DNA from: Candidatus Woesearchaeota archaeon
GTDB lineage: Archaea; Nanobdellota; Nanobdellia; Woesearchaeales; GW2011-AR9
DNA: 64,000 bases
Assembly: GCA_945861715.1 (NCBI GenBank)
Contig: CAMAVK010000001.1
Location: 458,908 to 522,907 of the forward strand
Direction: 5' to 3'
This document shows positions 12,078-55,131 of this stretch, piece after piece. Below the pieces are notes generated by a model. It ran no database searches. It saw only the letters and a list, made by a program, of their open reading frames with translations, and had not been told where the DNA came from. A program made the translations under genes and the position numbers. How positions within the stretch are numbered: the first letter of the stretch is position 1; each line of letters begins with the position of its first letter.

Positions 12078-12265
12078 AGTGTATCAAATGAACAGCTAAG
12101 AAACATACTTTATAAACATTTCATATGACTTTTTCTACACTTGAAATAACTCAAAAATTAAAATAGTGTATATCCCTCTTCCACTAAATTTCTTTCTCTT
12201 CCCTCTCTAAAAAACCCTCCCAAGTTGCCGACACATATATATACCATAATTAACCTCTTCCACCT

Positions 12266-13573
12266 ATGAATCAGTACAAGGTGATAATGCTAAGTATAGC
12301 TCTACTTATGCTAAGCACAAGCCTTATTTATTCCATCACCATCATCTCACTAACCGGTGCTGCAACCGATTCTGCCGGTACTGTCGGTTTTTGCAAAGTT
12401 CTCTATCCACGTTTAGACACCATTCCCAATCAAATAGGTTATGTCGGAACACCTTTCACTTATCCAGTCAATGTAAGCCCAGATTGTGGGGAGAGAATTA
12501 CCTTCTCCGGAGTACCGGTTCCTGATCTCTCCTCATTTCATATTAACTCCTCAACTGGTGTCATTGATATAACTCCTCAAGCAGGCGAAGAAGGTGTGTA
12601 TGATCTCAACATCTTCGTGGTAAAAAATGGGTTCGCATTAAACACGACTGTCTTTACATTTACTATCTTAGGAACCATTCGACCAACCAATTTTACGTGC
12701 ATAAAAAACACAACCAACTCCAGTAGAGTATACCTTAATTGGGATAACGTATCCACTGCATCATATTACAAAATCTATTACGCAACCAACATCTCCCAAG
12801 TCGCAAATATGACCTCAAACACCAGTCTGGGCAGCAATGTCAGTACCATATCATTACTTAATCAAAGTGAGTGGAGCGACAACAACCATCTTGGTGTCTT
12901 AAGGCGTTATTACACTGTTGTGGCTGTAGTAAACGGAACCGAAGGATACTCAGACGAACCAGTTTGTGGAAAAATCACCTATCAATACACCGCACCAGTT
13001 TCTAGCACCTATGGTACATTAGCCTCAAACCGTATTGTCCATTATCTCAACACCACAATGGACGCAGAAACGTGGCTTCAAGAAATTCCAGAAGGAAATA
13101 ATCCTACTATCTCTCGATTGGATAAATCAAACGCCTCAGGTGAGTATTATACAACCCATGTTCGTGGTCTACTCGATGGAAACAATTTCAATGTTGATCC
13201 AACCATTGGATATTTAATCACCACAGACAACTATTATAATCAAACCGTAGTCGGAAAAATATATCGACCTCCCTATAATATCAGCTACGACGCCCCTGTC
13301 TCAACGGTGTATGGAACACTTGCTTCAAACGCCAGAGGACCGCATGATAGCATCAAATATTATTATGCTGAAACATTTTTACAAGAAATCCCTGCCGGAC
13401 TCAACCCAACCGTATCACGTTTAGATAAGGGTAATGCCGAAGGAGAATATCTAACAACTCACGTGCGTGGTTTAGATGATGGAAATAATTTTTATATGCA
13501 GCCAGGAATTGGATACCTCATAACCACAGATGGATATTATAATCACTCCACCTGTAGCATGTGTTTTAGATAA
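12266..13573 (+). CDS. Secreted protein: Ig-like domain, FN3-like domain, then two tandem ~100-aa repeats
   Basis: Signal/TM peptide VIMLSIALLMLSTSLIYS. FN3-like segment (RPTNFTCIKNTTNSSRVYLNWDNVSTASYYKIYYAT). Repeats PVSSTYGTLASN...TISRLDKSNASGEYYTTHVRGLLDGNNF... and PVSTVYGTLASN...TVSRLDKGNAEGEYLTTHVRGLDDGNNF.... Confidence 0.55.
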   Translation: MNQYKVIMLSIALLMLSTSLIYSITIISLTGAATDSAGTVGFCKVLYPRLDTIPNQIGYVGTPFTYPVNVSPDCGERITFSGVPVPDLSSFHINSSTGVIDITPQAGEEGVYDLNIFVVKNGFALNTTVFTFTILGTIRPTNFTCIKNTTNSSRVYLNWDNVSTASYYKIYYATNISQVANMTSNTSLGSNVSTISLLNQSEWSDNNHLGVLRRYYTVVAVVNGTEGYSDEPVCGKITYQYTAPVSSTYGTLASNRIVHYLNTTMDAETWLQEIPEGNNPTISRLDKSNASGEYYTTHVRGLLDGNNFNVDPTIGYLITTDNYYNQTVVGKIYRPPYNISYDAPVSTVYGTLASNARGPHDSIKYYYAETFLQEIPAGLNPTVSRLDKGNAEGEYLTTHVRGLDDGNNFYMQPGIGYLITTDGYYNHSTCSMCFR

Positions 13574-13621
13574 AGAAAAGTATATACACCCCCAAAGAAA
13601 AAATAAACTTCCGGTGAAATC

Positions 13622-14749
13622 ATGAAAAGACAACACACAAACATCAATTATCATCGCACAAATATCAATTATCATCATCTAACTTTATTTCTAACTCTAT
13701 TTCTGATTTTACTCATTCCTGATGTATTAGCCACCAGTAAACCAATCTCAAGCACCCTGCAGTTTCCAAGTGGTTCTATCCACTCAGTGCCAATTACTGT
13801 TCACGCCCAAGCAACCGGAACGGGTACTCCTCAAGAATGTATCACCAACCCTCTTGTGTACACTGGAGAGAAAGGAAGTTTTGCAACTAATTTAGATAAT
13901 CTCATAATTAAAAGTGCACCCTCCCTTCGTTGCAATGGACTATGGTCAATTGGAGATAAAATCTGGTATAGCTATACCCTCAACAATCAAGAGTATTCAT
14001 CGCCTGTTGACACCATTAAATCAGGAACCGGCTTACAAGTTCTTATACCAATGGATGTTGGTCCCCTTGTACCAAACCCTTCATCACCCCCTGGATCATC
14101 CCCTGGTAGTTCAAATGAAAACACTAACCCCTCCTCCCCCAATCCTACCACTCCACCCAACGCTGACAATAATGGCAAAATCACAGCATCGCCAGACGCA
14201 TCAACTATTGAATTATTACTTCAATCGACACCCATTGACGACATCGTAAAGGTAACTGTATTTGGCCGAGTAACAAAAGGTGATCTCACAACCGCTACAA
14301 TTCGCATCGAACTACGAAGAATGCCAGACAATAAATTAGTTGATTATAGGGAAGTTGAATCCTCATTTCCATCAACAACAGAAGTAAATTTTGATGTCTC
14401 TCAAATCAAATCTGGTTTATACCAAGTCCAAGCCACTGCTCTACAAAACGGAGTCATTATTGCCGCTTCAGCCCCTGATACATTCACCCTTCGTAGACCT
14501 AATGAAGAGATACCTGCAAAATCAAATCTTGGTGGCATGGCAATAGCATTAAAAAATAATACTTCCTCACTTTTAGACAGCCCCTATCTTGCACTAGCCT
14601 CATACTTTATCTCATTTTTCCTCATACTTATTGCGCTCCTACTTTTCATGTACAAAAGGCGACACTACGCAACACCAATCCCAGTAGAAATAATCGGGGA
14701 AACAGTTGAACAATCAGGGAAATCAGAGAAAACAATCACCAAAAAATAA
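13622..14749 (+). CDS. Surface protein with a conserved two-cysteine N-terminal module, a P/S-rich linker, an Ig-like domain and a C-terminal TM anchor
   Basis: Signal peptide LTLFLTLFLILLIPDVLA. N-terminal module TSKPI...QECITNPLVYTGEKGSFATNLDNL...CNGLWSIGDKIW...SGTGLQVLIP, shared with the 16077 protein. C-terminal ALASYFISFFLILIALLLFMYKRRH. The true start is probably internal because the first 20 codons are a low-complexity NINYH repeat. Confidence 0.55.
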   Translation: MKRQHTNINYHRTNINYHHLTLFLTLFLILLIPDVLATSKPISSTLQFPSGSIHSVPITVHAQATGTGTPQECITNPLVYTGEKGSFATNLDNLIIKSAPSLRCNGLWSIGDKIWYSYTLNNQEYSSPVDTIKSGTGLQVLIPMDVGPLVPNPSSPPGSSPGSSNENTNPSSPNPTTPPNADNNGKITASPDASTIELLLQSTPIDDIVKVTVFGRVTKGDLTTATIRIELRRMPDNKLVDYREVESSFPSTTEVNFDVSQIKSGLYQVQATALQNGVIIAASAPDTFTLRRPNEEIPAKSNLGGMAIALKNNTSSLLDSPYLALASYFISFFLILIALLLFMYKRRHYATPIPVEIIGETVEQSGKSEKTITKK

Positions 14750-14773
14750 TCAACCAAAAATAACATCTTCCCC

Positions 14774-15757
14774 CTAACATGCAGGAGTTACTTGATACGA
14801 AATAGGAATTTTTTCATTATGAAAATATAATTCCATCTGGGTATAATCAGTAATCACATCAAGCGGTGTAGGGTCAATAATAGTTACAGATAAAACATAT
14901 TCTGTTCGTTCGAGAAGTTCTTCGATTGTGTCAGGCGCGCCATCCCAACAACCAGTATTGATATGATTCAGCCATGTCTGTACTACTCCACGAGGTCTAT
15001 CCATCAAAAAATCAGGCATCATCATTTCCTCTCTAGGATCATAAACAAAGTGGGGACGAAACGTAGTAGAATATTTCAAATCTTTCAAATACATTTCTAA
15101 AAACGAGACATCCTTACATCTTCGCATTAATTGTTCCAATTCTCCATACGTATCCGCGAGCACCATATTTGTGGATTCAAACATTTCCTTTGTCAATAAC
15201 CACGGTGTACCAGGATTAAGCTCATCCATCCACTGCAACAAATGATACAATTCAACTCGTGCATATTTCGAACCAACTTTTGGAAGGGCAGGTAATCCAA
15301 GCATACAAGAAAGACCTCCTTCCTGTCTGGTTTGTACTGGTCGTAAAATTCCAACCCCATATGTTAAAATTTCGAATGCTTGCGCCACACTTGACCACAT
15401 TGGATGTACTCCTCGGCGAAGTCGAATTCCCCCAGGCCTAATATGCCTTGGATCGTGATACAAATATTCATTGCAAAGATTAACGCCACCATTTGAAAAA
15501 AACCACCCTTCTACATCCTTCTGCGATAGGACCCATGCAGGTGTTCCCTCAGGAAAAACAATTTCTGCAGCCACCGGTGTCGGGTGATGGCGCACAATGT
15601 TTCCGTTGCCAATCAACATGTCAAAATCTTTCGTTAAAATTCGATAAGGGGCGTGTTTTGGATGTTCTGGAAAAACAAATTGGTTCATATCACTTTTTTC
15701 TAATCCATATTTAAAAATCAATTCTCCTATTATGTCATTGTTCCAAAAATGGAACAA
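14774..15757 (-). CDS. Hypothetical cytoplasmic protein (327 aa) embedded in the surface-protein cluster
   Basis: Long ORF with coherent composition. No motif I can assign. Possibly a glycan or surface-modification enzyme by context only. Confidence 0.3.
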   Translation of the reverse strand: MFHFWNNDIIGELIFKYGLEKSDMNQFVFPEHPKHAPYRILTKDFDMLIGNGNIVRHHPTPVAAEIVFPEGTPAWVLSQKDVEGWFFSNGGVNLCNEYLYHDPRHIRPGGIRLRRGVHPMWSSVAQAFEILTYGVGILRPVQTRQEGGLSCMLGLPALPKVGSKYARVELYHLLQWMDELNPGTPWLLTKEMFESTNMVLADTYGELEQLMRRCKDVSFLEMYLKDLKYSTTFRPHFVYDPREEMMMPDFLMDRPRGVVQTWLNHINTGCWDGAPDTIEELLERTEYVLSVTIIDPTPLDVITDYTQMELYFHNEKIPISYQVTPAC

Positions 15758-15828
15758 TTAACCCAAAAATAAAATAATTATTTCAAAAAAGGAACATTTA
15801 AAAAGGCAAAACCCCGAACCAAGCCTAA

Positions 15829-16080
15829 ATGCCTGCAGTACTTGATGGACTATTGGATAAAAAGACCGCATCATTACTGAAAGTTCTTTTAAAAAATAAA
15901 GACGAAATATACCATCTCCACTCTCTTTCTAGGGCGTCAAAAGTACCCGTCTCCTCTACTTCTAGAATTGTAACTAAACTAATCAAATTAGATCTGATAA
16001 CAACAAGAAAAGTCGGCAATATGGTCCTATTCCAAGCATCAAATTCTGAAAAAGCAAAATTGGTGGGTGATTTGCTATGA
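15829..16080 (+). CDS. Small winged-helix (MarR/ArsR-like) transcriptional regulator
   Basis: 83 aa. Helix-turn-helix region IYHLHSLSRASKVPVSSTSRIVTKLIKLDLITTRK followed by a beta-wing (VGNMVLFQ). Its TGA stop overlaps the start of the giant surface-protein gene (ATGA). Confidence 0.5.
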   Translation: MPAVLDGLLDKKTASLLKVLLKNKDEIYHLHSLSRASKVPVSSTSRIVTKLIKLDLITTRKVGNMVLFQASNSEKAKLVGDLL

Positions 16081-19000
16081 GTCAATCCACTAAGTCTACC
16101 AAAACCGTACTCCGCCTAAGTTTATTCATAATCATCCTCCTCCTCACATCAGCAACCGTACTCGCAGCTACAAAACCTATTGCTGGCTATATTTTCAAAA
16201 CAGACGGAACAACAGTGGCACCAAACGCGAGCGTACGAGTCTACGTAAACCAAGCTTCCGTGAGTGCAGCAAACCCGTGCTACACAAACCCTGCTGTTCT
16301 CTCCGGTGTAGATGGTTCATGGTCTACTAATCTCGCAAATTTGAAGCGAGCAGATAATGGGAATGATTGCTCTGGATTTTGGGCAACAGGGGATGCAATA
16401 TGGGCAAACGCCATTGGCCAAAACGTAACTCCTGAACACGGAAACCTTTCCACTGCAAATACAACCATCGCATCAGGAACCGGACTCCAGTATCTCTCAA
16501 ACGTTAGTCTCCCTGCAGGGCCGGATCGAATCGCACCAGTAATTCGTCTCATCGCCCCACCAAACGCCACCAACAACACCAACGGCTCCATCCTCTTTCA
16601 ATACAATGTAACCGATGACAGTCTCATTAGTAATTGTAGTGTACTATTCAACGGTACAATAAATACGACAAATACCTCTATAACCAGAAACATCACCATG
16701 AACTTCAGCCTCACCAATATTGCTGATGGCCACTATAATTGGTCTGTTGGATGTTATGATAACGTTACAAATTATAACACCAGTATTGAGACATGGTTCC
16801 TAAACGTATCGAAAGTAGGTCATTATAACTTAAGTCTTGTAACCCCGACGTCCAACACCAGCGTTGAACAGAATCAATTTTTTACTTTTACTATGCAAGT
16901 GAAATGTTATGATGGAAGCTGTGGTGATACAAATGCAAGTCTTGACCCTATTATTCTTGGTGAAGATCAAACAATTGTCTCCCAGAACAAATTTCACTCA
17001 CAAGGATTCTTTGAAAAAATATGGTCTTACTTCGCTGAATTCTTTTCAGGGAATCTCATCACCGGGCAAGTAACAGGTGCGCTCGTTCCCATGGTACCAA
17101 CCACACCATTTTACACTAATATGTCAAACCCTATGAACCTAAGTAATGTAAGTTGTCTAGCTAATATGGCTCAAAATAGCGCATGCAACGTAACATGGTA
17201 TGTCAACGCGTCAGGTCCTGTTGGGACCGTAGCAGAGTTCTGGGCATTTACTAACTCTACCATATACACCGCGCTGAACAATGAGACTCCACATTTATTT
17301 ATCAGTATAGTTGAATCAATCCCACCTGCTATTATTAATTACACTCCTCGAGGAGAGACTTTTAATGTCACCCAATTAATAGAAATCAGTCTTAACACCA
17401 CCGACCCCCAAAACATATCTTTTGTAAAAGCAAACATTACATATCCTAATGCAACCGTTGACCTAATTAATCTTACTCGTGTGGGTACTACCGATAAATA
17501 CAACAGCAGTTACACCATCCCGCCAAGAACTGGGTTCTACCTAATCAAATTTTGGGTAAATGATACAGGAAACAACATCAACGGAACAACTCAAACAAAT
17601 TTCACAGGTCAAGATATTGTCCCTCCTAACGTTACCACCCTCCTCCCTGCAATTTCAACAAGCTACAACACATCCCAAATAATTCAAATATCACTTAACG
17701 CAACTGACGTAACAAATATCAGCACAACGTTTGCCACCATCACTTCACCCAACAGCACCAAAACAAACGTCACCCTAAGTCGCCAAGGCACTACATACAA
17801 ATACAATGGAACCTACACTGTTCCTCCCCGCATTGGCACATTCAACATTACCTTCTTTGCAAATGATAGTAAAAATAATATCAACAATAGTGAAGTTTCA
17901 AACTTCACGGTACTCGATGGCGAATATCCTCGCCTAGCAACCATTGTAGAAGCCCCAACTGACCCGGCAACATACGTATATAATCAAACATATTTTTTCA
18001 ACATTACTATCACTGACAATATTGGAATAAACAATGTTATCATGCAATTCAATAACACAAATTACACCGCAGAAATAAAAAATCAAAGCACCATTTTTCA
18101 ATTCAACATCTCAGATCTCGCAGCCGCAACATACAATTATGTCTGGTATGCAAATGACACCAGTGGCTACATCAATTCTACTTCCTCTACCTACACCATC
18201 AGCAAAGCATCATCAACTGTAAATCTAACTTTATATGGAAATGATAGTAACACCAATATCAGTGTAAACACACCAGTTAACCTAAGCGGGGTACGAATCG
18301 CCGGTGATGGACAAATAGAATTACTTCAAAACGGATCCGTTCTCTCACTTGGCAATACAAGTACCTCCTCGAACCAAACCTATACCACGCTAACTTCATA
18401 TAATATCAGCATTCGACACAATTCTACTCAAAATTTCACTGCAAGTCAAGAAGATCATGTCCTCGCAATAAAGGATTATATTTCACCAAACGTCACCCTT
18501 GTAACCGTAAACGCTTCAAGCGTCAATCAAACGCAACATGTCAGAATAAACGCAACGATAATTGACAATCTTCAAATTGATTCCATTAAAACACAAATTT
18601 GGTTCCCCAACGGATCGGTCCAAAATTTCACCATGAATAACATCAGCTCTTCGTTTAATACCACCTATATCACAATTCTCACATCAAACATAGGAAACCA
18701 CACTGCACAAATTCTAGCTAACGATACCTCCGGAAATAGAAATACCACTCAAAACGTAAGCTTTTGGGTGTATGACATAACTCCACCTGCAGTTACTTTA
18801 CTCATACCCGCAAATCAAACTACTCTAGGAAATGGGACTACTATCCAATTGTCATCAACAACGACAGATAATATCGCAATATCGAGTACATATGCAAATA
18901 TTACTTACCCAAATAATTCCATTCAATCTATCCCCCTCACACTTACCACCGCATCAAAATATAATTCATCCTTGCTTCTAGGTCAACAAACAGGAATTTA

Positions 19001-21080
19001 TCTGATGCAAATATTTTCCAATGATTCAAGTAACAACATCAATGCAACAGAACAAGTATTGTTCTATGTGAACGAGACGGACGGTCCTCCAAATGTAACT
19101 CTAGTTGCAGTAAACGTATCAAGCGTTAATCAAACGCAGCATGTCAGAATCAATGCAACTGTCATGGATGCAATAAGTGTAGATACCGTTAAAACGCAAA
19201 TATACTTCCCTAATGGCTCAATCCAAAATTTCACGATGAGTAATGTGAGCTCCTACTATAACACCACCTATATCACAATTCTCACATCAAACATTGGAAA
19301 TCATACCGCGCAAATTATTGCAAACGATACCAATGGAAATAGAAATACCACTCAAAACGTCACCTTTTGGGTATACGACATCACACCACCCAATGTCACA
19401 GCTTTAATCCCGACAAATCAATCCACTGTATTCACCGGAACCAGCATTCAAATCGCAGCGAATGTAACAGACAACACTGCTCTCTCAACAGTATACGCAA
19501 ATATCACCTATCCAAATAGTTCAATCACCTCATTGCCCTTATCGTTAGCAACAGGTGCCAAATACAACTCTACTCTCACCTTGGGTTCATACAATGGAAC
19601 CTACACACTCCTTATCTTTTCCAATGATAGCAGCAATAATATCAACGCCACCGAACAAACACAGTTCTTTGTAAACACCTCAGATAATGCGCCAGTTGTA
19701 ACCTTGCTAAACCCTGCAGACAGCTATACGAATACTACTTCTACCTATCTTGAGATGAACTTTTCATGTTCTGCAACCGATGATTACGCCCTACGCAATA
19801 TCTCATTATACCTAAGCAATCCATCAAACACCAATTTTAGTCAGAATCAAAGTACTCTTCTTAATGGTACAACTAACTCTACTTCATGGCTACTTAATCT
19901 TACCCAAGGCTCCTTCACCTGGAACTGTCAAGCAATTGACAACAGTACTCAACTCGATTGGGCATCAAACCGCAGTATAACCCTATCTGCCCCTTCTTCC
20001 TCAAGCAGCAGTTCAAGCTCCTCCGGTGGTGGTGGTGGAAGTAGTTCAAGTACATCGAGTAGTAGTGGCGGGCCTATACCACAAAAAAGAGTAGATGTAA
20101 ATGCAACCCCGACATGTCTATGGAATGAAAGCATCATCGCAGGAAATTGCATGTACAATGAAAGTAATGTATTGCTAAATGCTTCACCTACTGAGATCCC
20201 AATAAACTCAAACCAAGGAATATTCAATTTAGTGGGAAGAGCATTTGATATAAACATCCATGCCTTTGGTCTAGACCTTAGTCTACTTTACATTGCCTTG
20301 ATGGTATTCCTCTTGGGCTTATTAGTGCTTTTACTGACCAGACGAAAACGACCATACCTTATTATTCAAGCACCAACCATGGCCGCCCCCGGTGACACCT
20401 TTGATGTAAACGTCAAACTAGGTAATGATTATCGGCCAGTTGTATTAAGAATTTGGAGTATTTTCGTTCCTGAGGGAGAAGTTGGTCTGCTAAACATCAA
20501 AAATATTATCGGCAAAGGCCCAACCTATCGTCTCGAAGTAGACCGATCAGAAATAAGGCGTGGCACCATTCCTGTGGCTATACCAGCACAGTTTATGCCG
20601 GGGAAATATCGAATCATCACGTGTGTGCGGTGGGAATACAAGAAGACAAATGAGCCAAAATCCCTTGTAGAAAAAGGAACAACCCAAGAAAAAATAAAAA
20701 TAACTGCTCATCAAAATAAAATAACGGTTACCCAAACTAAGTTACCTATCCCACCTGCGCTTCTAGTATTAGTGGGTAAACGAAGTCGGCTTCCAGAAAA
20801 TATCGCAATCAACTTACAAACCATGCGTGAAAAGCTCGCGCCAACTGCAAACATTGTTGAACTCGCAAGAACTCGTGAAGAAATTGTACTACGTATGCAC
20901 CAAGCAGAGAAAATGCATAACTTGCGTCTCAAAAAGTTAGAAATCGAAGAGGATATGCGACACACCGAAGAAGAAGGAGTACTACAGCTTCAGTTAACGA
21001 GACTAAATAGTACATTAACTAAGAATGCGGCACCCGTGCAACGCTCAACACAAACACCCACAAAAAGGGACAGAAAGTAA
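16077..21080 (+). CDS. Giant (1667 aa) heavily sequon-decorated surface protein: signal peptide, conserved N-terminal module, about 12 beta-sandwich repeats, poly-Ser/Gly stalk, single TM, ~260-aa cytoplasmic tail with a coiled coil
   Basis: Signal peptide LRLSLFIIILLLTSATVLA. N-terminal module homologous to the 13622 protein (ANPCYTNPAVLSGVDGSWSTNLANL...CSGFWATGDAIW...SGTGLQYL). N-x-S/T sequons occur every ~5-10 residues. Stalk SSSSSSSSSGGGGGSSSSTSSSSGG. TM LLYIALMVFLLGLLVLLLTRRKRP. The cytoplasmic tail ends in a K/E/R-rich coiled coil. Confidence 0.7.
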   Translation: MSQSTKSTKTVLRLSLFIIILLLTSATVLAATKPIAGYIFKTDGTTVAPNASVRVYVNQASVSAANPCYTNPAVLSGVDGSWSTNLANLKRADNGNDCSGFWATGDAIWANAIGQNVTPEHGNLSTANTTIASGTGLQYLSNVSLPAGPDRIAPVIRLIAPPNATNNTNGSILFQYNVTDDSLISNCSVLFNGTINTTNTSITRNITMNFSLTNIADGHYNWSVGCYDNVTNYNTSIETWFLNVSKVGHYNLSLVTPTSNTSVEQNQFFTFTMQVKCYDGSCGDTNASLDPIILGEDQTIVSQNKFHSQGFFEKIWSYFAEFFSGNLITGQVTGALVPMVPTTPFYTNMSNPMNLSNVSCLANMAQNSACNVTWYVNASGPVGTVAEFWAFTNSTIYTALNNETPHLFISIVESIPPAIINYTPRGETFNVTQLIEISLNTTDPQNISFVKANITYPNATVDLINLTRVGTTDKYNSSYTIPPRTGFYLIKFWVNDTGNNINGTTQTNFTGQDIVPPNVTTLLPAISTSYNTSQIIQISLNATDVTNISTTFATITSPNSTKTNVTLSRQGTTYKYNGTYTVPPRIGTFNITFFANDSKNNINNSEVSNFTVLDGEYPRLATIVEAPTDPATYVYNQTYFFNITITDNIGINNVIMQFNNTNYTAEIKNQSTIFQFNISDLAAATYNYVWYANDTSGYINSTSSTYTISKASSTVNLTLYGNDSNTNISVNTPVNLSGVRIAGDGQIELLQNGSVLSLGNTSTSSNQTYTTLTSYNISIRHNSTQNFTASQEDHVLAIKDYISPNVTLVTVNASSVNQTQHVRINATIIDNLQIDSIKTQIWFPNGSVQNFTMNNISSSFNTTYITILTSNIGNHTAQILANDTSGNRNTTQNVSFWVYDITPPAVTLLIPANQTTLGNGTTIQLSSTTTDNIAISSTYANITYPNNSIQSIPLTLTTASKYNSSLLLGQQTGIYLMQIFSNDSSNNINATEQVLFYVNETDGPPNVTLVAVNVSSVNQTQHVRINATVMDAISVDTVKTQIYFPNGSIQNFTMSNVSSYYNTTYITILTSNIGNHTAQIIANDTNGNRNTTQNVTFWVYDITPPNVTALIPTNQSTVFTGTSIQIAANVTDNTALSTVYANITYPNSSITSLPLSLATGAKYNSTLTLGSYNGTYTLLIFSNDSSNNINATEQTQFFVNTSDNAPVVTLLNPADSYTNTTSTYLEMNFSCSATDDYALRNISLYLSNPSNTNFSQNQSTLLNGTTNSTSWLLNLTQGSFTWNCQAIDNSTQLDWASNRSITLSAPSSSSSSSSSSGGGGGSSSSTSSSSGGPIPQKRVDVNATPTCLWNESIIAGNCMYNESNVLLNASPTEIPINSNQGIFNLVGRAFDINIHAFGLDLSLLYIALMVFLLGLLVLLLTRRKRPYLIIQAPTMAAPGDTFDVNVKLGNDYRPVVLRIWSIFVPEGEVGLLNIKNIIGKGPTYRLEVDRSEIRRGTIPVAIPAQFMPGKYRIITCVRWEYKKTNEPKSLVEKGTTQEKIKITAHQNKITVTQTKLPIPPALLVLVGKRSRLPENIAINLQTMREKLAPTANIVELARTREEIVLRMHQAEKMHNLRLKKLEIEEDMRHTEEEGVLQLQLTRLNSTLTKNAAPVQRSTQTPTKRDRK
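18485..19690 (+). repeat. Near-identical 603-nt (201-aa) tandem duplication inside the giant surface-protein gene
   Basis: Unit 1 (NVTLVTVNASSVNQTQHVRINATIIDN...ITILTSNIGNHTAQILANDTSGNRNTTQNVSFWVYDITPP...FSNDSSNNINATEQ) is repeated immediately as unit 2 (NVTLVAVNVSSVNQTQHVRINATVMDA...ITILTSNIGNHTAQIIANDTNGNRNTTQNVTFWVYDITPP...FSNDSSNNINATEQ). Nucleotide strings such as caagcgt(c/t)aatcaaacgca(a/g)catgtcagaat(a/c)aa(c/t)gcaac recur at 18519 and 19122. Confidence 0.85.
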
Positions 21081-25960: not shown

Positions 25961-26072
25961 CGGGCCCTGAGGGATTTGAACCCCCGACCTCGTGGTACCT
26001 ATCAATTACTCATTCCTTTCGGATTAGCAATGTTAAGAGCCACGCGCTCTAGCCAGCCTGAGCTAAGAGCCC
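25961..26072 (-). tRNA. tRNA-Lys (anticodon CUU) with a ~37-nt canonical-position intron (after nt 37). CCA is not encoded.
   Basis: Minus-strand read GGGCTCT-TA-GCTC-AGGCTGGCTA-GAGC-G-CGTGG-CTCTTA[intron ACATTGC...GATAGGT]A-CCACG-AGGTC-GGGGG-TTCAAAT-CCCTC-AGGGCCC-G. All four stems pair, U33 and A37 are present, and the T-loop is TTCAAAT. Exons are at about 26034-26072 and 25961-25996. Confidence 0.85.
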
Positions 26073-35145: not shown

Positions 35146-37638
35146 ATGACCAATAGTGTACTTGATGTTGATGAACAAAATCTTACTCCTGGGATGAAAC
35201 AATACAGGGAAGTAAAAGAAAAACATCCAGACTGTGTAGTCATGCTTCGCATGGGAGACTTCTTTGAAATGTTCTATGAAGACGCGGTCACTGCGTCAAG
35301 AGAGCTCGACATCACTTTAACATCCCGTGGTCAAGGTGAAAAACGCGCACCACTCGCAGGCATTCCCTTTCATGCTATTGAACCGTATCTAGGAAAACTT
35401 GTAAAGCGCGGCTACAAAGTTGCAATTGTAGAACAACTTGAAGATCCAAAAAAAGCCAAAGGTCTAATCAAGCGTGGAGTAGTGCGAATAGTTACCGCAG
35501 GAACTTTAGTTGAATCATCTCTTCTTACCGAAAAAGAAAATAACTATCTAGCAAGCATTGCAATTCACAACACAAGCGCAGCTCTTGCCATTGCTGACAT
35601 CTCAACAGGTGAGTTTCGAATCGAATCATTTTCAACATTATCAGACCTATTCGCATCCCTCACCCAAAATAATCCCTCAGAAATACTGCACGCGCACAGC
35701 TTAGCTGTAAACTCCGACATCATCGCCCGTCTGAAAATCATCGCTCCTCTTGAATCACTTGATGACCAACTTTACAAATATGACGCAGCAAAAAAAAGAA
35801 TCTGTGATTTCTTTAATCTAACTTCTCTAGATCCCTTTCAGCTTGAGAATCAAAAATTAGAAGTTGCGGCCGCCGCATCACTATTGAACTATCTCGAGAA
35901 AACCCACAAAACAAAACTAGTACACCTAACAAAAATAACCAGATCAAGTACCAAGCATATGATCATTGACGCAAATACCTTTCGCAGTTTAGAAATCACG
36001 AAATCCCTTAAAGACGGATCAAAAAAAGGCACGTTACTTGAAGTATTAGACGACACCAAAACAGCCCTCGGCGGACGCCTCTTGAACAAATGGCTCACAG
36101 CTCCCCTCCAAGATCAAATTCAAATGCAAGACCGCATCGCAGCCATTACTGATTTAAAGTCATCTTCTCTACGTCTCGCCCAACTCCAAAATACCCTCAA
36201 CACTATTCAAGATATCGAACGACTTCTATCGAAGGTACATACAGCCATTGCCACCCCAAAGGACATCTTAAGTTTACGTAACTCGCTGCGACCACTCCCA
36301 ATCCTCATAACTCAACTCTCACCAAAAACACTTCGTGCATTAAGATTAAAAGAAATCGCCACCTTAAATACTCACCACGAGTTGGTTCATTATCTCACAC
36401 AAGCAATGCGTGATGAAGCTCCGCACAGCACCCGTGAAGGTGACATCTTCAACTCAGAGTTTCACCAAGAACTCTCTAGTTTGAGAAACATCCGTGATCA
36501 CGCATCCGACATCATAACGAAAATTGAAGAAGCTGAAAAAAAGAAAACGGGAATTAATTCTCTCAAAGTAGGCTACACACGAATATTTGGGTACTACATC
36601 GAAATACCTCGAAAGAATACTCAACAAATCCCTACGACCTACATGCGAAAACAAACAACTGCCAACGCCGAAAGATACATAACTTCCGAATTAAAAGAAA
36701 TGGAAGACAAAGTTCTCAATGCTGATGAGAAAATAAAAGAGTTAGAATATACCCTCTTCCATGAACTTTTAAACAACATAAAATTTCATACTTCCGAGTT
36801 ACAAGAAACTGCCAAGCATATCGCAGAGCTCGACGTACTCTGCGCGCTCACCAGCGTCGCGATAAAAAATAATTATCATGCCCCAACACTATCCAACGAA
36901 AAAGATCTAATCCTTACCAACGCAAGACACCCCGTCGTAGAAACGCTTGCATCAAATTTCATCTCAAATAGTATCACGCTGCAAGACGGACATATGATGA
37001 TCATCACTGGACCAAACATGGCTGGTAAATCAACCATCATGCGACAGTGCGCATTAATAATCTACTTAGCTCATATTGGCTCCTACGTTCCAGCAACATC
37101 CGCAATCATCCCACTCACAGATAAAATATTTAGTCGAGTAGGAGCTCAAGACGATTTAGCAACAGGAAAATCAACCTTCTTAGTTGAAATGCATGAAACT
37201 GCACACATAGTAAACAACGCAACCGCCAATTCATTTATTATCCTTGACGAAATCGGAAGAGGAACAAGCACCTTTGATGGTGTCTCCATTGCGTGGAGTG
37301 TAGCTGAGTACATTCATAACCACATCCGCGCAAAAACCATGTTTGCCACACACTATCACATACTAAACAATCTCACTCAAACTCTTCCTCGAATTGAAAA
37401 CTTCAACATCGCAGTCGAAGAAAATCAAAAAGAAAATTCCATCACCTTCTTACACACATTAATCCCCGGCGGAACGGATCAAAGTTATGGGATTCACGTC
37501 GCAAAAATCGCAGGCATCCCCCAACAAATCCTCGAGCGTGCAACACAAATACAACAGACATTAGAAAAAGATGACAAAATGGTGCGTCTCCTTAAAGCGA
37601 AGCGACTCGACGACCAGAAATCAATAACTGAATTTTAA
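35146..37638 (+). CDS. mutS: DNA mismatch repair protein MutS (bacterial-type MutS1)
   Basis: Domain I mismatch-binding motif LTPGMKQYREVKEKHPDCVVMLRMGDFFEMFYEDA (Phe-x-Glu). Walker A ITGPNMAGKSTIMRQ. Walker B/ABC signature IILDEIGRGTSTFDG. HTH-like C-terminus. TAA stop. No mutL in the window. Confidence 0.88.
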   Translation: MTNSVLDVDEQNLTPGMKQYREVKEKHPDCVVMLRMGDFFEMFYEDAVTASRELDITLTSRGQGEKRAPLAGIPFHAIEPYLGKLVKRGYKVAIVEQLEDPKKAKGLIKRGVVRIVTAGTLVESSLLTEKENNYLASIAIHNTSAALAIADISTGEFRIESFSTLSDLFASLTQNNPSEILHAHSLAVNSDIIARLKIIAPLESLDDQLYKYDAAKKRICDFFNLTSLDPFQLENQKLEVAAAASLLNYLEKTHKTKLVHLTKITRSSTKHMIIDANTFRSLEITKSLKDGSKKGTLLEVLDDTKTALGGRLLNKWLTAPLQDQIQMQDRIAAITDLKSSSLRLAQLQNTLNTIQDIERLLSKVHTAIATPKDILSLRNSLRPLPILITQLSPKTLRALRLKEIATLNTHHELVHYLTQAMRDEAPHSTREGDIFNSEFHQELSSLRNIRDHASDIITKIEEAEKKKTGINSLKVGYTRIFGYYIEIPRKNTQQIPTTYMRKQTTANAERYITSELKEMEDKVLNADEKIKELEYTLFHELLNNIKFHTSELQETAKHIAELDVLCALTSVAIKNNYHAPTLSNEKDLILTNARHPVVETLASNFISNSITLQDGHMMIITGPNMAGKSTIMRQCALIIYLAHIGSYVPATSAIIPLTDKIFSRVGAQDDLATGKSTFLVEMHETAHIVNNATANSFIILDEIGRGTSTFDGVSIAWSVAEYIHNHIRAKTMFATHYHILNNLTQTLPRIENFNIAVEENQKENSITFLHTLIPGGTDQSYGIHVAKIAGIPQQILERATQIQQTLEKDDKMVRLLKAKRLDDQKSITEF

Positions 37639-38191: not shown

Positions 38192-39274
38192 ATGATCTAC
38201 GCTACCCTCACCCAAGAAAACCGTACAGAGAACTCGTTTAGTTTAGAAGGAAACACTGCAATTGGTCGCAAGCTCCTTCCGGATAAGGACTTATTCGAGT
38301 TATGGGAACGAAGAATAACCTCTTCCAAGCACAAAAATAATGGTGCCACACGCATGGCGCCCATTTCAGTTACAGAATTACAACATCAATATTCTCAAAA
38401 AAATCTCGATCTCATAATCAGCGACAATATTGACGTATCGCGTCGTCATCTCCTATTTTGTGTGCCTAACTGGGGAATGAATGCCTATCACGTAATCGAT
38501 TTATTCAGTTATTATGGCACCACCGTAAACGGCGAAAACTTAACTCCTGCGGTGCCTAAAAAGGTAAGCCATGGTGATAGAATCACAATTCTAGGCAAAA
38601 CTGAAATCCCTTTTATATTCAAAGAAGTAGAACGCGTTACAAAGTATGAAGCAATTATTATCGCGAACCCAGACGGGACCTTAGACTGTAATGAGCCTAT
38701 CGCAGCGGAACTAGAAGATTTACTTCTCAAACGTAATTTCAAAGTAGACACATTAAAATCAAATGTTCAACTTAAACAAGTAACAAATAGTATAGCACAA
38801 AAAGCGAGATCATTACGGTCGCACGACTATTTATTATTTCTGTATCTTGGGCATGGATCAAAAAACGGCGAATTACGTTTTGCAGATAATGGTTTCGTGC
38901 ATGCCTCAAATTTATACTCCTCACTAAGTACTGTTCCCGCAAAAAAAATCATTTTATTAGATTGTTGTTATGGGAAGAATTTTCTCATTCCTGAGATTCC
39001 TCTGAACTCAGCTGTTGCCGTAAGTACATCGAGGCTAGATCTATCTTACACCAATACGTTTACCAAGGGATTAATTCGACGATTACAAGACCCGAGGGGG
39101 GGTTATTTTGAGCGTGTGATTGATGATGCTTGCCATTATGCCGAAGTAGAATTACGTCTATGTGGGATGGAACCCGGAACAAAAGCCTCAATGGTCACTT
39201 ATTTTAATACAGCAAGAGATGAAGATCGTGAACAAGCTCGCAAAGATATGAATAATTTTATTCATCAAAAATAA
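38192..39274 (+). CDS. FHA domain - caspase-like (peptidase C14, metacaspase/orthocaspase) fusion protein
   Basis: N-terminal FHA signatures: NTAIGRK, VSRRHLLF, GTTVNGENL, GDRITILG. C-terminal C14 catalytic dyad: His in LFLYLGHGSKNGELRF and Cys in KKIILLDCCYGKN (compare the DCCHSG of metacaspases). Confidence 0.65.
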   Translation: MIYATLTQENRTENSFSLEGNTAIGRKLLPDKDLFELWERRITSSKHKNNGATRMAPISVTELQHQYSQKNLDLIISDNIDVSRRHLLFCVPNWGMNAYHVIDLFSYYGTTVNGENLTPAVPKKVSHGDRITILGKTEIPFIFKEVERVTKYEAIIIANPDGTLDCNEPIAAELEDLLLKRNFKVDTLKSNVQLKQVTNSIAQKARSLRSHDYLLFLYLGHGSKNGELRFADNGFVHASNLYSSLSTVPAKKIILLDCCYGKNFLIPEIPLNSAVAVSTSRLDLSYTNTFTKGLIRRLQDPRGGYFERVIDDACHYAEVELRLCGMEPGTKASMVTYFNTARDEDREQARKDMNNFIHQK

Positions 39275-42432: not shown

Positions 42433-43632
42433 ATGAAAAAGGTGGTTGATGCTGTTATAATTATTATACTTCTATTATCACTCACATCCATCGCACTAGC
42501 TGACACCTATATCAGTGGAGTTTTTCCCACTATCAATAGTACCAACATCAACGCGTTTCAAGTCAATGGAAATGCAGCACAAACCGGAAGTGTACTCCGG
42601 CTTACTCCCGCGTCTAACAATCAAGCAGGTAGTGCATTTTGGAAATACAAAACGGATTTTCCTGCCAACCGCTCATTTGCAACTTATTTCTCATTTCAAA
42701 TAACAAGCACGGGTGGCGGCGGAGCTGACGGATTAGTCTTTGTCATACAACCCGATTCAAATACGGCTGGATCTTCAGGAGGCGGCCTTGGATTCTCCGG
42801 CATACCAAACGCATTTGGTGTCGAATTTGATACCTATCAAAACGGTGACTATGGTGATCCGAACGGGAATCACATTGGTATTGATTTAAGCCCGGGTGGT
42901 TTGGGCAGCGTTACTTCTGTAGCCACTGTTACCGTTGACTCAATCAACTCCTCGTGGTCTCTTGAAGATGGGGCAATATATCACACCTGGGTTGAATATA
43001 ACGGGAGTACCCAAAATATTACTATTCGCTTGAACCGCAACAACAATACTCGTCCAATAAATGCAGTATTAAATTACACCACAAACCTCTCCAATGTATT
43101 TGCACAGCAAGCGTACGTCGGCTTTACTGCTGCTACTGGCGGTGCCTACGAGAATCACGATATAAACAGCTTCTTCATAAATAATAACTATCTCTCTGAC
43201 GGAATAAACATTAATACGACCACTTATCAACCCTATGCATACAGGCTACTATTAAGCCAAAGTCATTTAAACGTCTCCGCCGATGGATACTCCGTCTCCG
43301 CTATAACCATCAACGCAACCGATCTTGATGGAAACTTATTACCCACTCAAAACATTTCTTTTACAACAACCTTGGGAAACATTATGCCTTTAGGGGATAA
43401 ATATGCTTCAAGTGGTTTAACTAATAGCACAGGTCAATTGTATCCAGTCTACGCTAGTTCCCATCTACCTGGAACCGCAACTATCACTGCCTCCGTCCCA
43501 GGTGGAGCATATAATATCACTACTGTGACTTTTTTAAATAGTGGTGCAACTGTTCCTGAGTTATCAACTATAGCTCTATTCCTCATCATCGCATCTGTTT
43601 TCTCTGGGTTCTTTTATATACGCACAAAATAA
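42433..43632 (+). CDS. Secreted surface protein with an N-terminal L-type (legume-lectin-like) lectin domain, a Big-like domain and a C-terminal TM anchor
   Basis: Signal peptide IIIILLLSLTSIALA. Legume-lectin signature blocks FQVNGNAAQTGSVLRLTP...NQAGSAFW...FATYFSFQITSTGGGGADGLVFVIQP...GGGLGFSGIPNAFGVEFDTYQNGDYGDPNGNHIGIDL. C-terminal ELSTIALFLIIASVFSGFFYIRTK. Confidence 0.65.
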   Translation: MKKVVDAVIIIILLLSLTSIALADTYISGVFPTINSTNINAFQVNGNAAQTGSVLRLTPASNNQAGSAFWKYKTDFPANRSFATYFSFQITSTGGGGADGLVFVIQPDSNTAGSSGGGLGFSGIPNAFGVEFDTYQNGDYGDPNGNHIGIDLSPGGLGSVTSVATVTVDSINSSWSLEDGAIYHTWVEYNGSTQNITIRLNRNNNTRPINAVLNYTTNLSNVFAQQAYVGFTAATGGAYENHDINSFFINNNYLSDGININTTTYQPYAYRLLLSQSHLNVSADGYSVSAITINATDLDGNLLPTQNISFTTTLGNIMPLGDKYASSGLTNSTGQLYPVYASSHLPGTATITASVPGGAYNITTVTFLNSGATVPELSTIALFLIIASVFSGFFYIRTK

Positions 43633-52839: not shown

Positions 52840-54000
52840 CTAATTCAGCCCAGCATCAACCCGTTCAGGCAAATCAACTGCACTTACGTTTGGCACATCA
52901 ATCGTTGGTAACTCAGCCCGATTTTTCGTGATAGAAAGCCGATTGGATAAAATATTATACTCTTTACAAAATCGGAGTAAATTATCTGTCTTTCGTTTTT
53001 CTGGCTCACAATGCAGCACCTCACGAATAGAGTACGCAAACAAGTTCCGAGACTCCTTTGGTAACATCTGCATAAAAGGTGACCATGCAAGTGCTTGAAC
53101 AATGCGTTCAACATTGGATGTTTCTAAAACATTTGCTCTAATAAATTTTTCCACCTCCAATCCATCGCGTGATTCAAGTCGAGCAAATGGATACCTATCT
53201 AACAGTTCTAATGTTACAAGACCAAGTGCATAATAATCTGATTTCAAAGTTGGGCACCCTCGAGCCTGTTCGGGAGCGACATACTCAACCGTTCCACGAA
53301 ATGTCCCATCATCTGGTAAACAGTTTGCTTCCCCTAACCTTAATTGATCAATATTTCGAATGACTCGGCTTTCAAGTGACAGTGCAGCTGTATAATCAAT
53401 GAGTACAATACCTTCAGCTCCAAGCATGATATTACCTGGTTTAATGTCCAAGTGCATAAACCCGAGTGAGTGAAACGCATCAACTGCATCGGCTAGTTCA
53501 GAACAAAATTCTACTTTCTGTGATTTTCCATATGGTACTCGAAGATGCGAAAGTGGGTCTCCTTGTACCCGGTCCATCCCCACAAGTACACTTAACCACC
53601 CCTCATCATCAACAAATAATGTGTGGGAGCAATACCCCACCAGTCGTCCACCGTCCATTACCGAATATTTTTTTGCATCTTGTAAAATCCCAATCTCTTG
53701 GGTAATCATCTGCAATCGAACAAGCTCTGAGGGAAAGAAATCGACTATCTCTGCAAATGTCTCATCTCCAATCCTACGGCTAACCTCAAATTGCGAAAAT
53801 CTCCCCGTTTGACCAACATAGGTGCATTCTGAATCAATACTTCTCCCCTCACACCCTAATAACTTAATCTTCATTAATTTTGCAACTCGATAAGGCGACT
53901 CGGTGGCATATACAATCCCAAAACCACCTCTACCTAACTCTTCTCGTAGTCCAAAATATTCTTGAATTGTTTTCGTAACCATTTTATAAATAAGTATCAA
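52840..54000 (-). CDS. Eukaryotic-like Ser/Thr protein kinase (Hanks type) with a C-terminal extension
   Basis: Gly loop LGRGGFGIVY. VAIK Lys (RVAKLMK). Catalytic loop HLDIKPGNIML. APE motif EYVAPEQ. Confidence 0.8.
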   Translation of the reverse strand: MILIYKMVTKTIQEYFGLREELGRGGFGIVYATESPYRVAKLMKIKLLGCEGRSIDSECTYVGQTGRFSQFEVSRRIGDETFAEIVDFFPSELVRLQMITQEIGILQDAKKYSVMDGGRLVGYCSHTLFVDDEGWLSVLVGMDRVQGDPLSHLRVPYGKSQKVEFCSELADAVDAFHSLGFMHLDIKPGNIMLGAEGIVLIDYTAALSLESRVIRNIDQLRLGEANCLPDDGTFRGTVEYVAPEQARGCPTLKSDYYALGLVTLELLDRYPFARLESRDGLEVEKFIRANVLETSNVERIVQALAWSPFMQMLPKESRNLFAYSIREVLHCEPEKRKTDNLLRFCKEYNILSNRLSITKNRAELPTIDVPNVSAVDLPERVDAGLN

Positions 54001-54152
54001 ATAATCTTTAGAAACACCACCAAAACATATACTTCATATAAAAATCAATTTTATTTAAAAAGTTTCCCTCCTAAAGCACCTCACTCTCTTTTTCAAAAAA
54101 AAATCAATACCACTAGAAATCTTTATTAACTGTCCCAAACCCCAAGAACATC

Positions 54153-54707
54153 ATGGCCTCTATTCCTAAACGATATTTTCTAATCTCACTCGCCATAGCG
54201 ATCATTTACGCCTTTTTCATCGGATACGGAATCGAAGTATTTCATGAAGGGAAAAACTACGAAGATTTCTGCTCTCAACGAGTTTACGAGGCACGAAATC
54301 AAACTGCTTGCACAGAATTAAATGGAACCTGGCAATCATACCCTCCTGCCATGGATGTTAAAGCCCCTCAACCAGTTCAAATTGATCCAAGCATACAAAC
54401 TGGATCATGTTCCAACTCTTACTCTTGTCAGGAAAAATATGAAAACACATCTCTCACTCACGATCGCATTGTATTCATCGTTGCACTAATCGGATCCATA
54501 GTCGCCTTTATAATTGGAACACTTCTCTCTCGAGAAATAACCAGCACCGGTCTATATGGTGGAGCCGTTTTAACCCTACTATATGGAACAATGCGCTATT
54601 GGCAGCACGCCGACAATCTCTTGAAATTTGTACTTCTTGGGGTTGCACTTGCAATTCTCATCTGGATTGCGATAAAAAAACTCCAAGACAATAAAGGCAA
54701 AAAATAA
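54153..54707 (+). CDS. Membrane protein: N-terminal TM, Cys-containing ectodomain, two C-terminal TMs
   Basis: LISLAIAIIYAFFIGYGI; IVFIVALIGSIVAFIIGTLL; LKFVLLGVALAILIWIAI. Confidence 0.4.
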   Translation: MASIPKRYFLISLAIAIIYAFFIGYGIEVFHEGKNYEDFCSQRVYEARNQTACTELNGTWQSYPPAMDVKAPQPVQIDPSIQTGSCSNSYSCQEKYENTSLTHDRIVFIVALIGSIVAFIIGTLLSREITSTGLYGGAVLTLLYGTMRYWQHADNLLKFVLLGVALAILIWIAIKKLQDNKGKK

Positions 54708-54729
54708 TCCAGCCTCCCCCAAAAAACAG

Positions 54730-55131
54730 GTGATACCAATGTTTGAATTCCTCAAAAAATCTAAGGCCACACTTACCTTAAGCGCTGAGTCCGCTGTAAA
54801 AAACCAATCCTTTCCAGCACAAGAGTTCATTCTCAAAGAAGAGAAAATTGAAATTGGAAAAAATAAATCTCCTTTCAGCGAAAAATTCATCTCTAAAATC
54901 GGCTCAAAAATTACCATCGCAAGTAATGACCTAACAAAAAAAATAAGCATAAATCACAGTCTTCTCACCTGGGATATGAACACCAGTACCTACACCTATC
55001 AAGAACAATCTGAAAAAGGATCATTAGTCAATGGCGAACCACTTGAGAAAGGAGAAGAAACGGTTTTAGAAGATGGAAGTGAAATATTAATTCACCCCTT
55101 CAAATTCACTCTGAAGTATACTCCAAAGTAA
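54730..55131 (+). CDS. FHA-domain protein
   Basis: IEIGKNKS...ISINHSLLTWD...KGSLVNGEPLEKGEETVLEDGSEILI follows the FHA pattern G(R/K)...S..H..l...(S/T)xNGT.vNg..l...l.dGD.i. Confidence 0.5.
   Translation: MIPMFEFLKKSKATLTLSAESAVKNQSFPAQEFILKEEKIEIGKNKSPFSEKFISKIGSKITIASNDLTKKISINHSLLTWDMNTSTYTYQEQSEKGSLVNGEPLEKGEETVLEDGSEILIHPFKFTLKYTPK

Follow-up and report, generated by a model that had tools for sequence, protein, structure and literature searches.

A 64,000-nucleotide stretch of a Candidatus Woesearchaeota contig (CAMAVK010000001.1, positions 458,908 to 522,907; hereafter the window) carries a gene for a 360-residue protein in which a phosphothreonine-binding FHA domain runs directly into a caspase-like protease of family C14. 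Judged by its sequence, the gene is one of more than 90 FHA-caspase fusions that make up a hitherto undescribed family in DPANN archaea. The reading that we favor, and hold with moderate confidence, is that the product is a cytoplasmic, single-chain C14 (clan CD) orthocaspase, which a rigidly attached FHA domain would dock on partners bearing phosphothreonine; we infer that the protease is gated by phosphorylation. An initial annotation of this DNA had proposed a single-chain fusion of an FHA domain with a caspase-like C14 protease whose His/Cys dyad is intact, and both Pfam and the family alignment bear this out. Both of the motifs on which it relied are found in the protein (YLGHGSKNG, residues 218-226; LLDCCYGKN, residues 255-263), and the domain search that it had recommended places both PF00498 and PF00656 above their gathering cut-offs. 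The features of the gene are given below; residue counts out of 114 refer to a MAFFT alignment of 114 full-span relatives, which provides an unselected basis for them.

38192..39274, forward strand: FHA-orthocaspase fusion gene, 360 aa, stop codon at 39272-39274; Pfam FHA and Peptidase_C14 matches above cut-offs
38192..38632, forward strand: FHA domain, residues 1-147, beta-sandwich
38267..38269, forward strand: codon of Arg26, the Arg of the FHA GR motif; Arg in 98/114 and Gly25 in 109/114 family members
38270..38398, forward strand: helical insertion in the β3-β4 region of the FHA domain, residues 27-69 (43 residues), with the subclade motif LFxLWxxR
38438..38449, forward strand: Ser83-Arg84-Arg85-His86, the FHA SRxH motif, aligned to SRRH of GarA; Ser in 106/114, Arg in 96/114, His in 101/114
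38507..38530, forward strand: FHA SxNGTxxN motif, here S106-Y-Y108-G-T110-T-V-N113; S106 in 106/114, T110 in 105/114, N113 in 89/114
38639..39271, forward strand: C14 domain of the caspase/hemoglobinase fold, residues 150-360; six core strands, single chain, 13-residue β4-β5 connector
38699..38701, forward strand: codon of Ile170, at the site of the second S1-pocket Asp (LxGCxND), aligned to LRGCVND of Arabidopsis metacaspase-4 (AtMC4)
38852..38854, forward strand: codon of catalytic His221 (YLGHGS), aligned to YSGHG of AtMC4; His in 100/114 unselected relatives and invariant in the 91-member alignment A2
38960..38968, forward strand: Asp257-Cys258-Cys259 with catalytic Cys259, aligned to DSCHSG of AtMC4; Cys in 104/114, Asp in 97/114

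The open reading frame (ORF) begins at the first ATG past an in-frame stop codon, and we take this start to be right because the N-terminus of the protein lines up with those of its homologs (MKYAxLxQ). An identical protein is present on independent assemblies from NCBI, Logan and ENA, the longest contig being 796,844 bp. No transmembrane-like or signal-like segment is apparent, the peak 19-residue Kyte-Doolittle hydropathy being 1.14, and the protein is therefore expected to be cytoplasmic and soluble. The intergenic regions around the gene have AT-rich boxes upstream and T-runs downstream.

The family of FHA-caspases

A word-indexed search of 5.8 billion proteins returned only the protein itself and a single relative with 45% identity, and a single-protein query of genome contigs returned no related locus. 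A profile built from these two sequences was then run exhaustively with HMMER against 1.84 billion cluster representatives; it matched 316 proteins at E<=1e-3, 56 of them at E<=1e-10. Among the matches, more than 100 representatives of 330-370 residues align in a single stretch that covers the FHA domain and continues into the protease. The complete set of FHA and His/Cys signature residues is present in 91 representatives, and these make up alignment A2, whose members were selected for His221, Cys259, Ser83 and Gly25. Pfam recognizes an FHA domain in 88 of the 91 and Peptidase_C14 in 81, the latter with a best E=2e-16. Three family members have an organism name, two of them Candidatus Woesearchaeota and one Candidatus Micrarchaeota, and their annotations read 'caspase family protein' or 'FHA domain-containing protein'. 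A later search of the word-indexed database with the family profile added few further members and one more taxon name.

Some representatives depart from the catalytic signature. P0006 (locus L092, 7001-8068) has GDG in place of GHG, and about eight further candidates that keep the FHA signature (P0025, P0033, P0056, P0065, P0076, P0116, P0135 and P0141) are without the catalytic His and/or Cys in the alignment. These dyad-deficient members, putatively archaeal, look like pseudo-orthocaspases. The nearest relatives of the protease domain that have no FHA domain (P0054, P0061, P0089, P0100, P0113, P0133, P0138 and P0147) are large proteins in which one to three C14 domains are combined with fn3, PKD, Ig-like, TIG, cadherin-like or Por_Secre_tail domains; they are probably surface or secreted caspase-like proteases.

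The protease domain

As a single sequence, the protein scores 25.7 bits with Pfam Peptidase_C14 (PF00656; cut-off 21.4, E=1.1e-5) over residues 171-276; the match spans profile positions 26-131 of 233 only. Searched against PDB, the 91-member profile matches the caspase-like protein GSU0716 of Geobacter sulfurreducens (3BIJ, E=1.6e-19), Arabidopsis metacaspase-4 (6w8s, E=2.7e-14) and metacaspase-9 (9n3d, E=1.7e-10), metacaspase-1 or Yca1 (7qp0, E=2.3e-10) and Trypanosoma MCA2 (4af8, E=4.2e-7). Metacaspases are thus represented among the best 60 of 119 PDB matches at E<=0.01, and no caspase sensu stricto is found among these 60. In the profile alignment, the family consensus ysGHG falls on YSGHG of metacaspase-4, DaCh on DSCHSG and L-x-G-x-x-N-D on LRGCVND. 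Such a motif-to-motif match indicates that the His/Cys alignment is genuine. The initial annotation had named two outcomes that would count against it, namely a C14 assignment unsupported by profiles and a spurious alignment of the dyad, and neither was what the family profile and the motif alignment returned. An acidic residue at position -2 from the catalytic Cys, such as Asp257 here, is typical of metacaspases and paracaspases.

The structure was modeled with AlphaFold2 (AF2) on the 91-sequence alignment, which replaced a run on two sequences that had a predicted local distance difference test score (pLDDT) of 54.7. In the fold comparison, the protease domain scored 22.0 with metacaspase-4 (193 residues aligned), 21.1 with metacaspase-9, 19.6 with legumain, 19.4 with caspase-9, 19.3 with MALT1 and 18.7 with GSU0716. 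The model has a caspase fold, in which His221 follows strand 213-219 (β3) and Cys259 follows strand 251-257 (β4). From Cys259, a connector of 13 residues (family median 14) leads to β5 (273-277), and helices and β6 (329-332) come next. The sequence match to the p10 subunit of metacaspase-4 amounts to 7.8 bits with an i-Evalue of 18. The β5-α-α-β6 half is nevertheless present in the model, which superposes on metacaspase-4 over the 193 residues; as modeled, the C-terminal p10-like half is structurally there but unrecognizable by sequence. Combining a p20 domain and the dyad with no match to the p10 hidden Markov model, the protein is an orthocaspase under the operational definition of a 2019 survey (Klemencic et al., PMC6426788). 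Its active-site motif is DCCYG and not the QACxG pentapeptide of caspases sensu stricto (C14A). Nor does it have the acidic S1 pocket of metacaspases in full: Asp257 is kept, and the Asp of LxGCxND is Ile170.

The model also speaks to the way in which the two domains are joined. The final FHA strand (139-147) is followed by a linker of about four residues and then by β1 of the protease (152-158). Over 82 members, the spacing from D129 to A154, that is from FHA to protease, is mostly 20-26 residues. Because this spacing is conserved and the predicted template modeling score (pTM) is high, the FHA domain and the protease would appear to form a rigid two-domain unit and not a protease with a flexibly tethered adaptor.

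The FHA domain

The FHA assignment is safe even from the single sequence: Pfam FHA (PF00498) scores 39.1 bits (cut-off 20.7, E=1e-9) over residues 72-133. The domain has the beta-sandwich FHA fold, and its fold-comparison scores with the FHA domains of EmbR, DgcB, RNF8, Mek1, GarA and Sulfolobus ArnA are 13-15. In characterized FHA domains, the Arg of the GR motif is a phosphate contact. The residues associated with phosphothreonine binding are retained in the window protein (G25, R26, S83, R84, H86, S106, T110 and N113; of these, R26, S83 and R84 contact the phosphate), with the exception of the Asn of SxN, which is Tyr108. The insertion after the GR loop is helical in the AF2 model, with helices at residues 31-43, 50-54 and 60-68.

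Genomic context

Three further genes of the window bear on the function of the FHA-caspase:

35146..37638, forward strand: MutS1 with all five domains (I-V), by Pfam
52840..54000, reverse strand: Hanks-type Ser/Thr kinase; Pkinase E=1.3e-15; GRGGFG, RVAK, HLDIKPGN and APE motifs
54730..55131, forward strand: stand-alone FHA protein, 133 aa; Pfam FHA E=6.5e-6, 26.9 bits against a cut-off of 20.7

The initial annotation had noted that the window also encodes a Hanks-type kinase and a second FHA protein, and Pfam together with the sequence motifs confirmed both. The kinase, which carries DYT where DFG is usual, is the only candidate writer of phosphothreonine seen in the window. It belongs to a compact cluster (52840-55131) with a 184-aa membrane protein and the 133-aa FHA protein, the last two on the forward strand; the small FHA protein has GK instead of GR in its phosphate-binding loop.

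We compared the window locus with nine further family loci. In eight of the nine, the neighbors are archaeal housekeeping genes, encoding S8e, S19e, L31e, L39e, L18Ae, fibrillarin, eIF-6 and prefoldin as well as SRP54, aIF5B, the Hef helicase-nuclease and aminoacyl-tRNA synthetases. The ninth locus, that of P0006, has no diagnostic marker and lies among metabolic genes (G6PD, transaldolase, translin). No neighbor gene is common to the window and the nine other loci, and synteny is confined to small lineage-specific segments: fibrillarin followed at some distance by PCC/PyrI in L086 and L089, and SRP54 upstream in L084 and L091. Neither a sensor nor an NTPase partner is found at the nine other loci, and STAND, SAVED or gasdermin-type neighbors are absent from all ten. 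Adjoining phospho-signaling genes occur at a single sampled locus, L091 (8259-10504), where a gene for an FHA-only protein of 316 aa comes directly after the FHA-caspase, with a metallophosphatase gene next in line on the opposite strand. We regard this arrangement as suggestive and not as a conserved linkage. At another locus, L084 on a Woesearchaeota contig, ten same-strand genes for proteins of 166-182 aa with no Pfam match lie just downstream of the FHA-caspase (10690-15897); the run looks like a tandem array of paralogs.

The position of the gene downstream of a bacterial-type MutS1 had also been singled out in the initial annotation. MutS1 is real and lies upstream; significance of its position finds no support, as mutS is within 7-8 kb of the FHA-caspase at none of the nine other loci. 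On the contig of the closest homolog (L003), the flanking genes are unrelated, the 126-aa ORF that lies between mutS and the FHA-caspase gene in the window is absent, and the orphan ORFs flanking the gene (126 aa and 183 aa) are not conserved partners. With no mutS at the nine other loci and no neighbors shared with the closest homolog, the adjacency is best taken as incidental. MutS itself is 52% identical to a protein from a Methanosarcinales metagenome-assembled genome (MAG), its other top matches being 41-45% identical and from Clostridia or Desulfobacterales, and the gene looks like a separately acquired one of bacterial type. No MutL was found among the neighboring ORFs scanned, and a MutS-based search of genome contigs returned neither a close genome nor an FHA-caspase linked to mutS.

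Proposed mode of action and alternatives

In the mechanism that we propose, which takes up the phosphorylation gating that the initial annotation had considered plausible, the FHA domain would serve as a rigidly mounted exosite that reads phosphothreonine and brings the protease to a protein that a Hanks-type kinase has phosphorylated. This docking partner may be the kinase, in its autophosphorylated form, or a substrate of the kinase. In actinobacteria, the FHA proteins GarA, FhaA and EmbR dock on an autophosphorylated Hanks kinase. Docking would either place a scissile bond close by within reach of the active site or gather protease domains for activation, and Ser/Thr phosphorylation would thereby be turned into irreversible cleavage. 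We infer such a partnership between kinase and protease. Only 13 residues connect the His/Cys half to the C-terminal half, and with so short a connector maturation probably does not require autoprocessing between subunits. With Asp257 at position -2 from the catalytic Cys, the protease would be expected to prefer a basic P1 residue (Arg/Lys); for the window copy this prediction is uncertain, as its subclade has lost the second S1 Asp.

A number of observations weigh against the view of the window protein as an active protease docked through phosphothreonine. The single-sequence C14 score is marginal, only 4 bits over the cut-off. The kinase cluster is 13.5 kb from the FHA-caspase gene, and over the nine other loci neither a kinase nor a phosphatase is a conserved neighbor. 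Tyr108 occupies a column that is Asn, a residue in contact with the peptide, in 91 of the 114 aligned relatives and Tyr in only four. Further points concern the divergent subclade to which the window copy belongs, consisting of the window protein and P0002-P0007 (n=7; 24-44% identity in alignment A3). Between GR and SRxH, these proteins have 52-69 residues, compared with a median of 32 (interquartile range 30-35) in the rest of the family and about 14 in classical FHA domains such as that of GarA. The LFxLWxxR motif of the inserted segment is conserved in the subclade, with W38 and R41 invariant, and in the model this helical segment directly follows the GR loop, where it could cover the phosphopeptide site or alter its shape. 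The Asp of LxGxxND contributes to the metacaspase S1 pocket, as in TbMCA2 and MALT1-type enzymes. This position is Asp in 73/107 of the rest of the family and in 0/7 of the subclade; the other acidic residue, Asp257, is retained in five of the seven. In P0006, also a subclade member, GDG replaces GHG and the catalytic His is lost. Because the second S1 Asp is missing throughout the subclade and P0006 has lost its His, the catalytic competence or the specificity of this lineage may have drifted. Much of this (Tyr108, the large insertion beside the GR loop, the altered S1 pocket and P0006, the kinase linked to the gene at none of the nine other loci), along with the roughly nine representatives that are without His or Cys in the alignment, could also be explained if the FHA domain were a phospho-independent interaction or scaffold module, or if the subclade protein were drifting toward a non-catalytic pseudo-protease. 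Yet Arg26, Ser83 and Arg84 are present in 7/7 subclade members, His86 in 4/7, His221 in 6/7 and Cys259 in 7/7, and outside the subclade 83-93% of members keep Arg26, Ser83, Arg84 and His86. Such a pattern of retained residues is what functional phosphothreonine binding and catalysis would be expected to leave, and we consider loss of either function unlikely, while taking it seriously.

A different role was suggested by the initial annotation, that of a cell-death or abortive-infection effector. On this reading, an infection signal, possibly phosphorylation, would activate the protease and bring about cell death or arrest. CHAT/caspase-like proteases in type III CRISPR, CBASS and gasdermin systems are precedents, and the fast evolution of the gene would fit. 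The window protein is 25% identical over 242 residues to the copy on a 1.56-Mb Woesearchaeota contig and ribosomal P0 is 66% identical, a comparison of that one genome pair in which the two FHA-caspases may be orthologs or paralogs. The 81%-identical P0 and the 45%-identical FHA-caspase are unusable as a second pair, coming from separate MAGs (GCA_964372965.1 and GCA_053532275.1). However, PADLOC gave no match at E<=10 for the protein or its flanking ORFs, and the NCBIfam model of EACC1-associated caspases (NF047832) scored 28.2 bits against a cut-off of 140. There was likewise no PHROGs match and no relative on viral contigs, and a search for repeats over 33-43 kb yielded only low-identity chance pairs. 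With these searches null, there is no signature of a mobile element or a defense island, and the gene is a stand-alone one among housekeeping genes in 8/9 loci and among metabolic genes at the ninth. The suggestion is thus left unsupported, and we regard a defense role as quite improbable. Still less can be said for an FHA-mediated checkpoint protease of DNA damage or mismatch repair tied to mutS. FHA domains are common in eukaryotic DNA-damage signaling, and the FHA-caspase gene is co-directional with mutS at a distance of 553 bp; the lack of synteny at the nine other loci and the apparently separate acquisition of MutS largely refute the idea, leaving it a very slim chance. As to an artifact, be it an assembly chimera, a frameshift or a chance motif, the marginal single-sequence C14 score might have raised the suspicion, but the identical protein on independent assemblies and the layout shared, with conserved spacing, by 91 representatives refute it, and we give it practically no weight.

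Relation to known systems

Neither the caspase fold and its catalytic machinery nor the pairing of orthocaspases with accessory domains is new, and homologs of the window protein have been annotated automatically as caspase family; domain databases may already list the FHA-caspase architecture. What the window protein has in common with orthocaspases carrying accessory domains is a prokaryotic p20-type protease with a His-Cys dyad and an extra domain. In a 2012 survey (Asplund-Samuelsson et al., PMC3501461), archaeal examples come from Euryarchaeota only, and the term 'FHA' appears nowhere in the main text. The 2019 survey (PMC6426788) found 93 archaeal p20 proteins, whose prevalent partners are FGE-sulfatase, EF-hand and Big_7, and no pseudo-variants in Archaea; the passages of it that were available do not mention FHA. 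Compared with these surveyed proteins, the partner here is FHA and the hosts are DPANN archaea. In the literature, which was incompletely covered, we found no description of an FHA-orthocaspase family or of DPANN caspase homologs.

Other systems differ in one component or another. Proteins of the GSU0716 type (PDB 3BIJ) are bacterial, have no FHA domain and offer no functional guide, whereas the window protein is archaeal and has one. Unlike metacaspases (Arabidopsis MC4 and MC9, yeast Yca1, Trypanosoma MCA2), it lacks a p10 recognizable by sequence, a long linker, a Pro-rich or zinc-finger prodomain and the second S1 Asp, and a DSSP reading of the model gives six core strands against their eight. 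Known FHA readers, such as GarA/OdhI, FhaA and EmbR of actinobacteria and ArnA of Sulfolobus, have enzyme inhibition, transcription or motility as their outputs, whereas here the output would be a protease; the FHA domain of the window protein also bears an unusual helical insertion of 43 residues after the GR loop. The adaptor domains of caspase-9 (CARD), caspase-8 (DED) and MALT1 (DD/Ig) are unrelated to FHA. In metazoan caspases the adaptor is flexibly tethered, in contrast to the linker of about four residues in the window protein, which has DCCYG where Asp-specific caspases have QACxG and lacks their basic S1 pocket.

Prokaryotic caspase homologs are abundant, very few of them have a known trigger, and the archaeal ones are barely charted. 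An FHA-wired protease would offer a concrete route of activation, from kinase to phosphothreonine to cleavage, and the family extends caspase-fold proteases into DPANN archaea. The retention of the gene in highly reduced DPANN genomes argues for an important rather than an accessory cellular role. If phospho-dependence holds, the family would be a simple model of how recruitment domains gain control of caspase-fold proteases. A broader proposal, which we put forward as speculative, is that the FHA-caspase is a conserved and vertically inherited DPANN device for converting Ser/Thr phosphorylation into site-specific proteolysis, and that the fast-evolving subclade of the window copy, with its larger FHA insert and altered S1 pocket, is a re-targeted version of it. 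If so, adaptor-driven caspase activation would have an archaeal counterpart of prokaryotic simplicity, and the re-targeted subclade might act in symbiont-host interaction or in the regulated cell death of episymbionts.

Host and other features of the window

The markers in the window are archaeal: TFB, L1, L10/P0 with the archaeal insertion domain, PAC2, a PUA protein and TYW3. The P0 protein is 64-81% identical to proteins named Nanoarchaeota, Candidatus Woesearchaeota or Nanoarchaeia, and because its closest relatives are Woesearchaeota/Nanoarchaeota proteins, the earlier description of the host as a reduced archaeon was right. A tRNA at 25961-26072 on the reverse strand is detected by Rfam (50 bits, E=9.8e-8), ARAGORN being silent; its length of 112 nt points to an archaeal tRNA with an intron. 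All 2-kb bins from 1 to 64000 have a negative GC skew (-0.04 to -0.35), and the cumulative curve declines without reversal to -6.1, showing a strong and uniform strand asymmetry over the whole window with no switch.

Several ORFs of the window have features of surface proteins. Two large ones on the forward strand, at 16077-21080 (1667 aa) and 6218-9178 (986 aa), have weak Ig-like matches (Big_7, FixG_C) and are probably surface proteins. The ORF at 42433-43632, also on the forward strand, encodes 399 aa with an N-terminal signal-like segment, an L-type (legume-type) lectin domain (E=5e-40), Big_1 and a C-terminal hydrophobic anchor, and is a predicted surface lectin, unusual for an archaeon.

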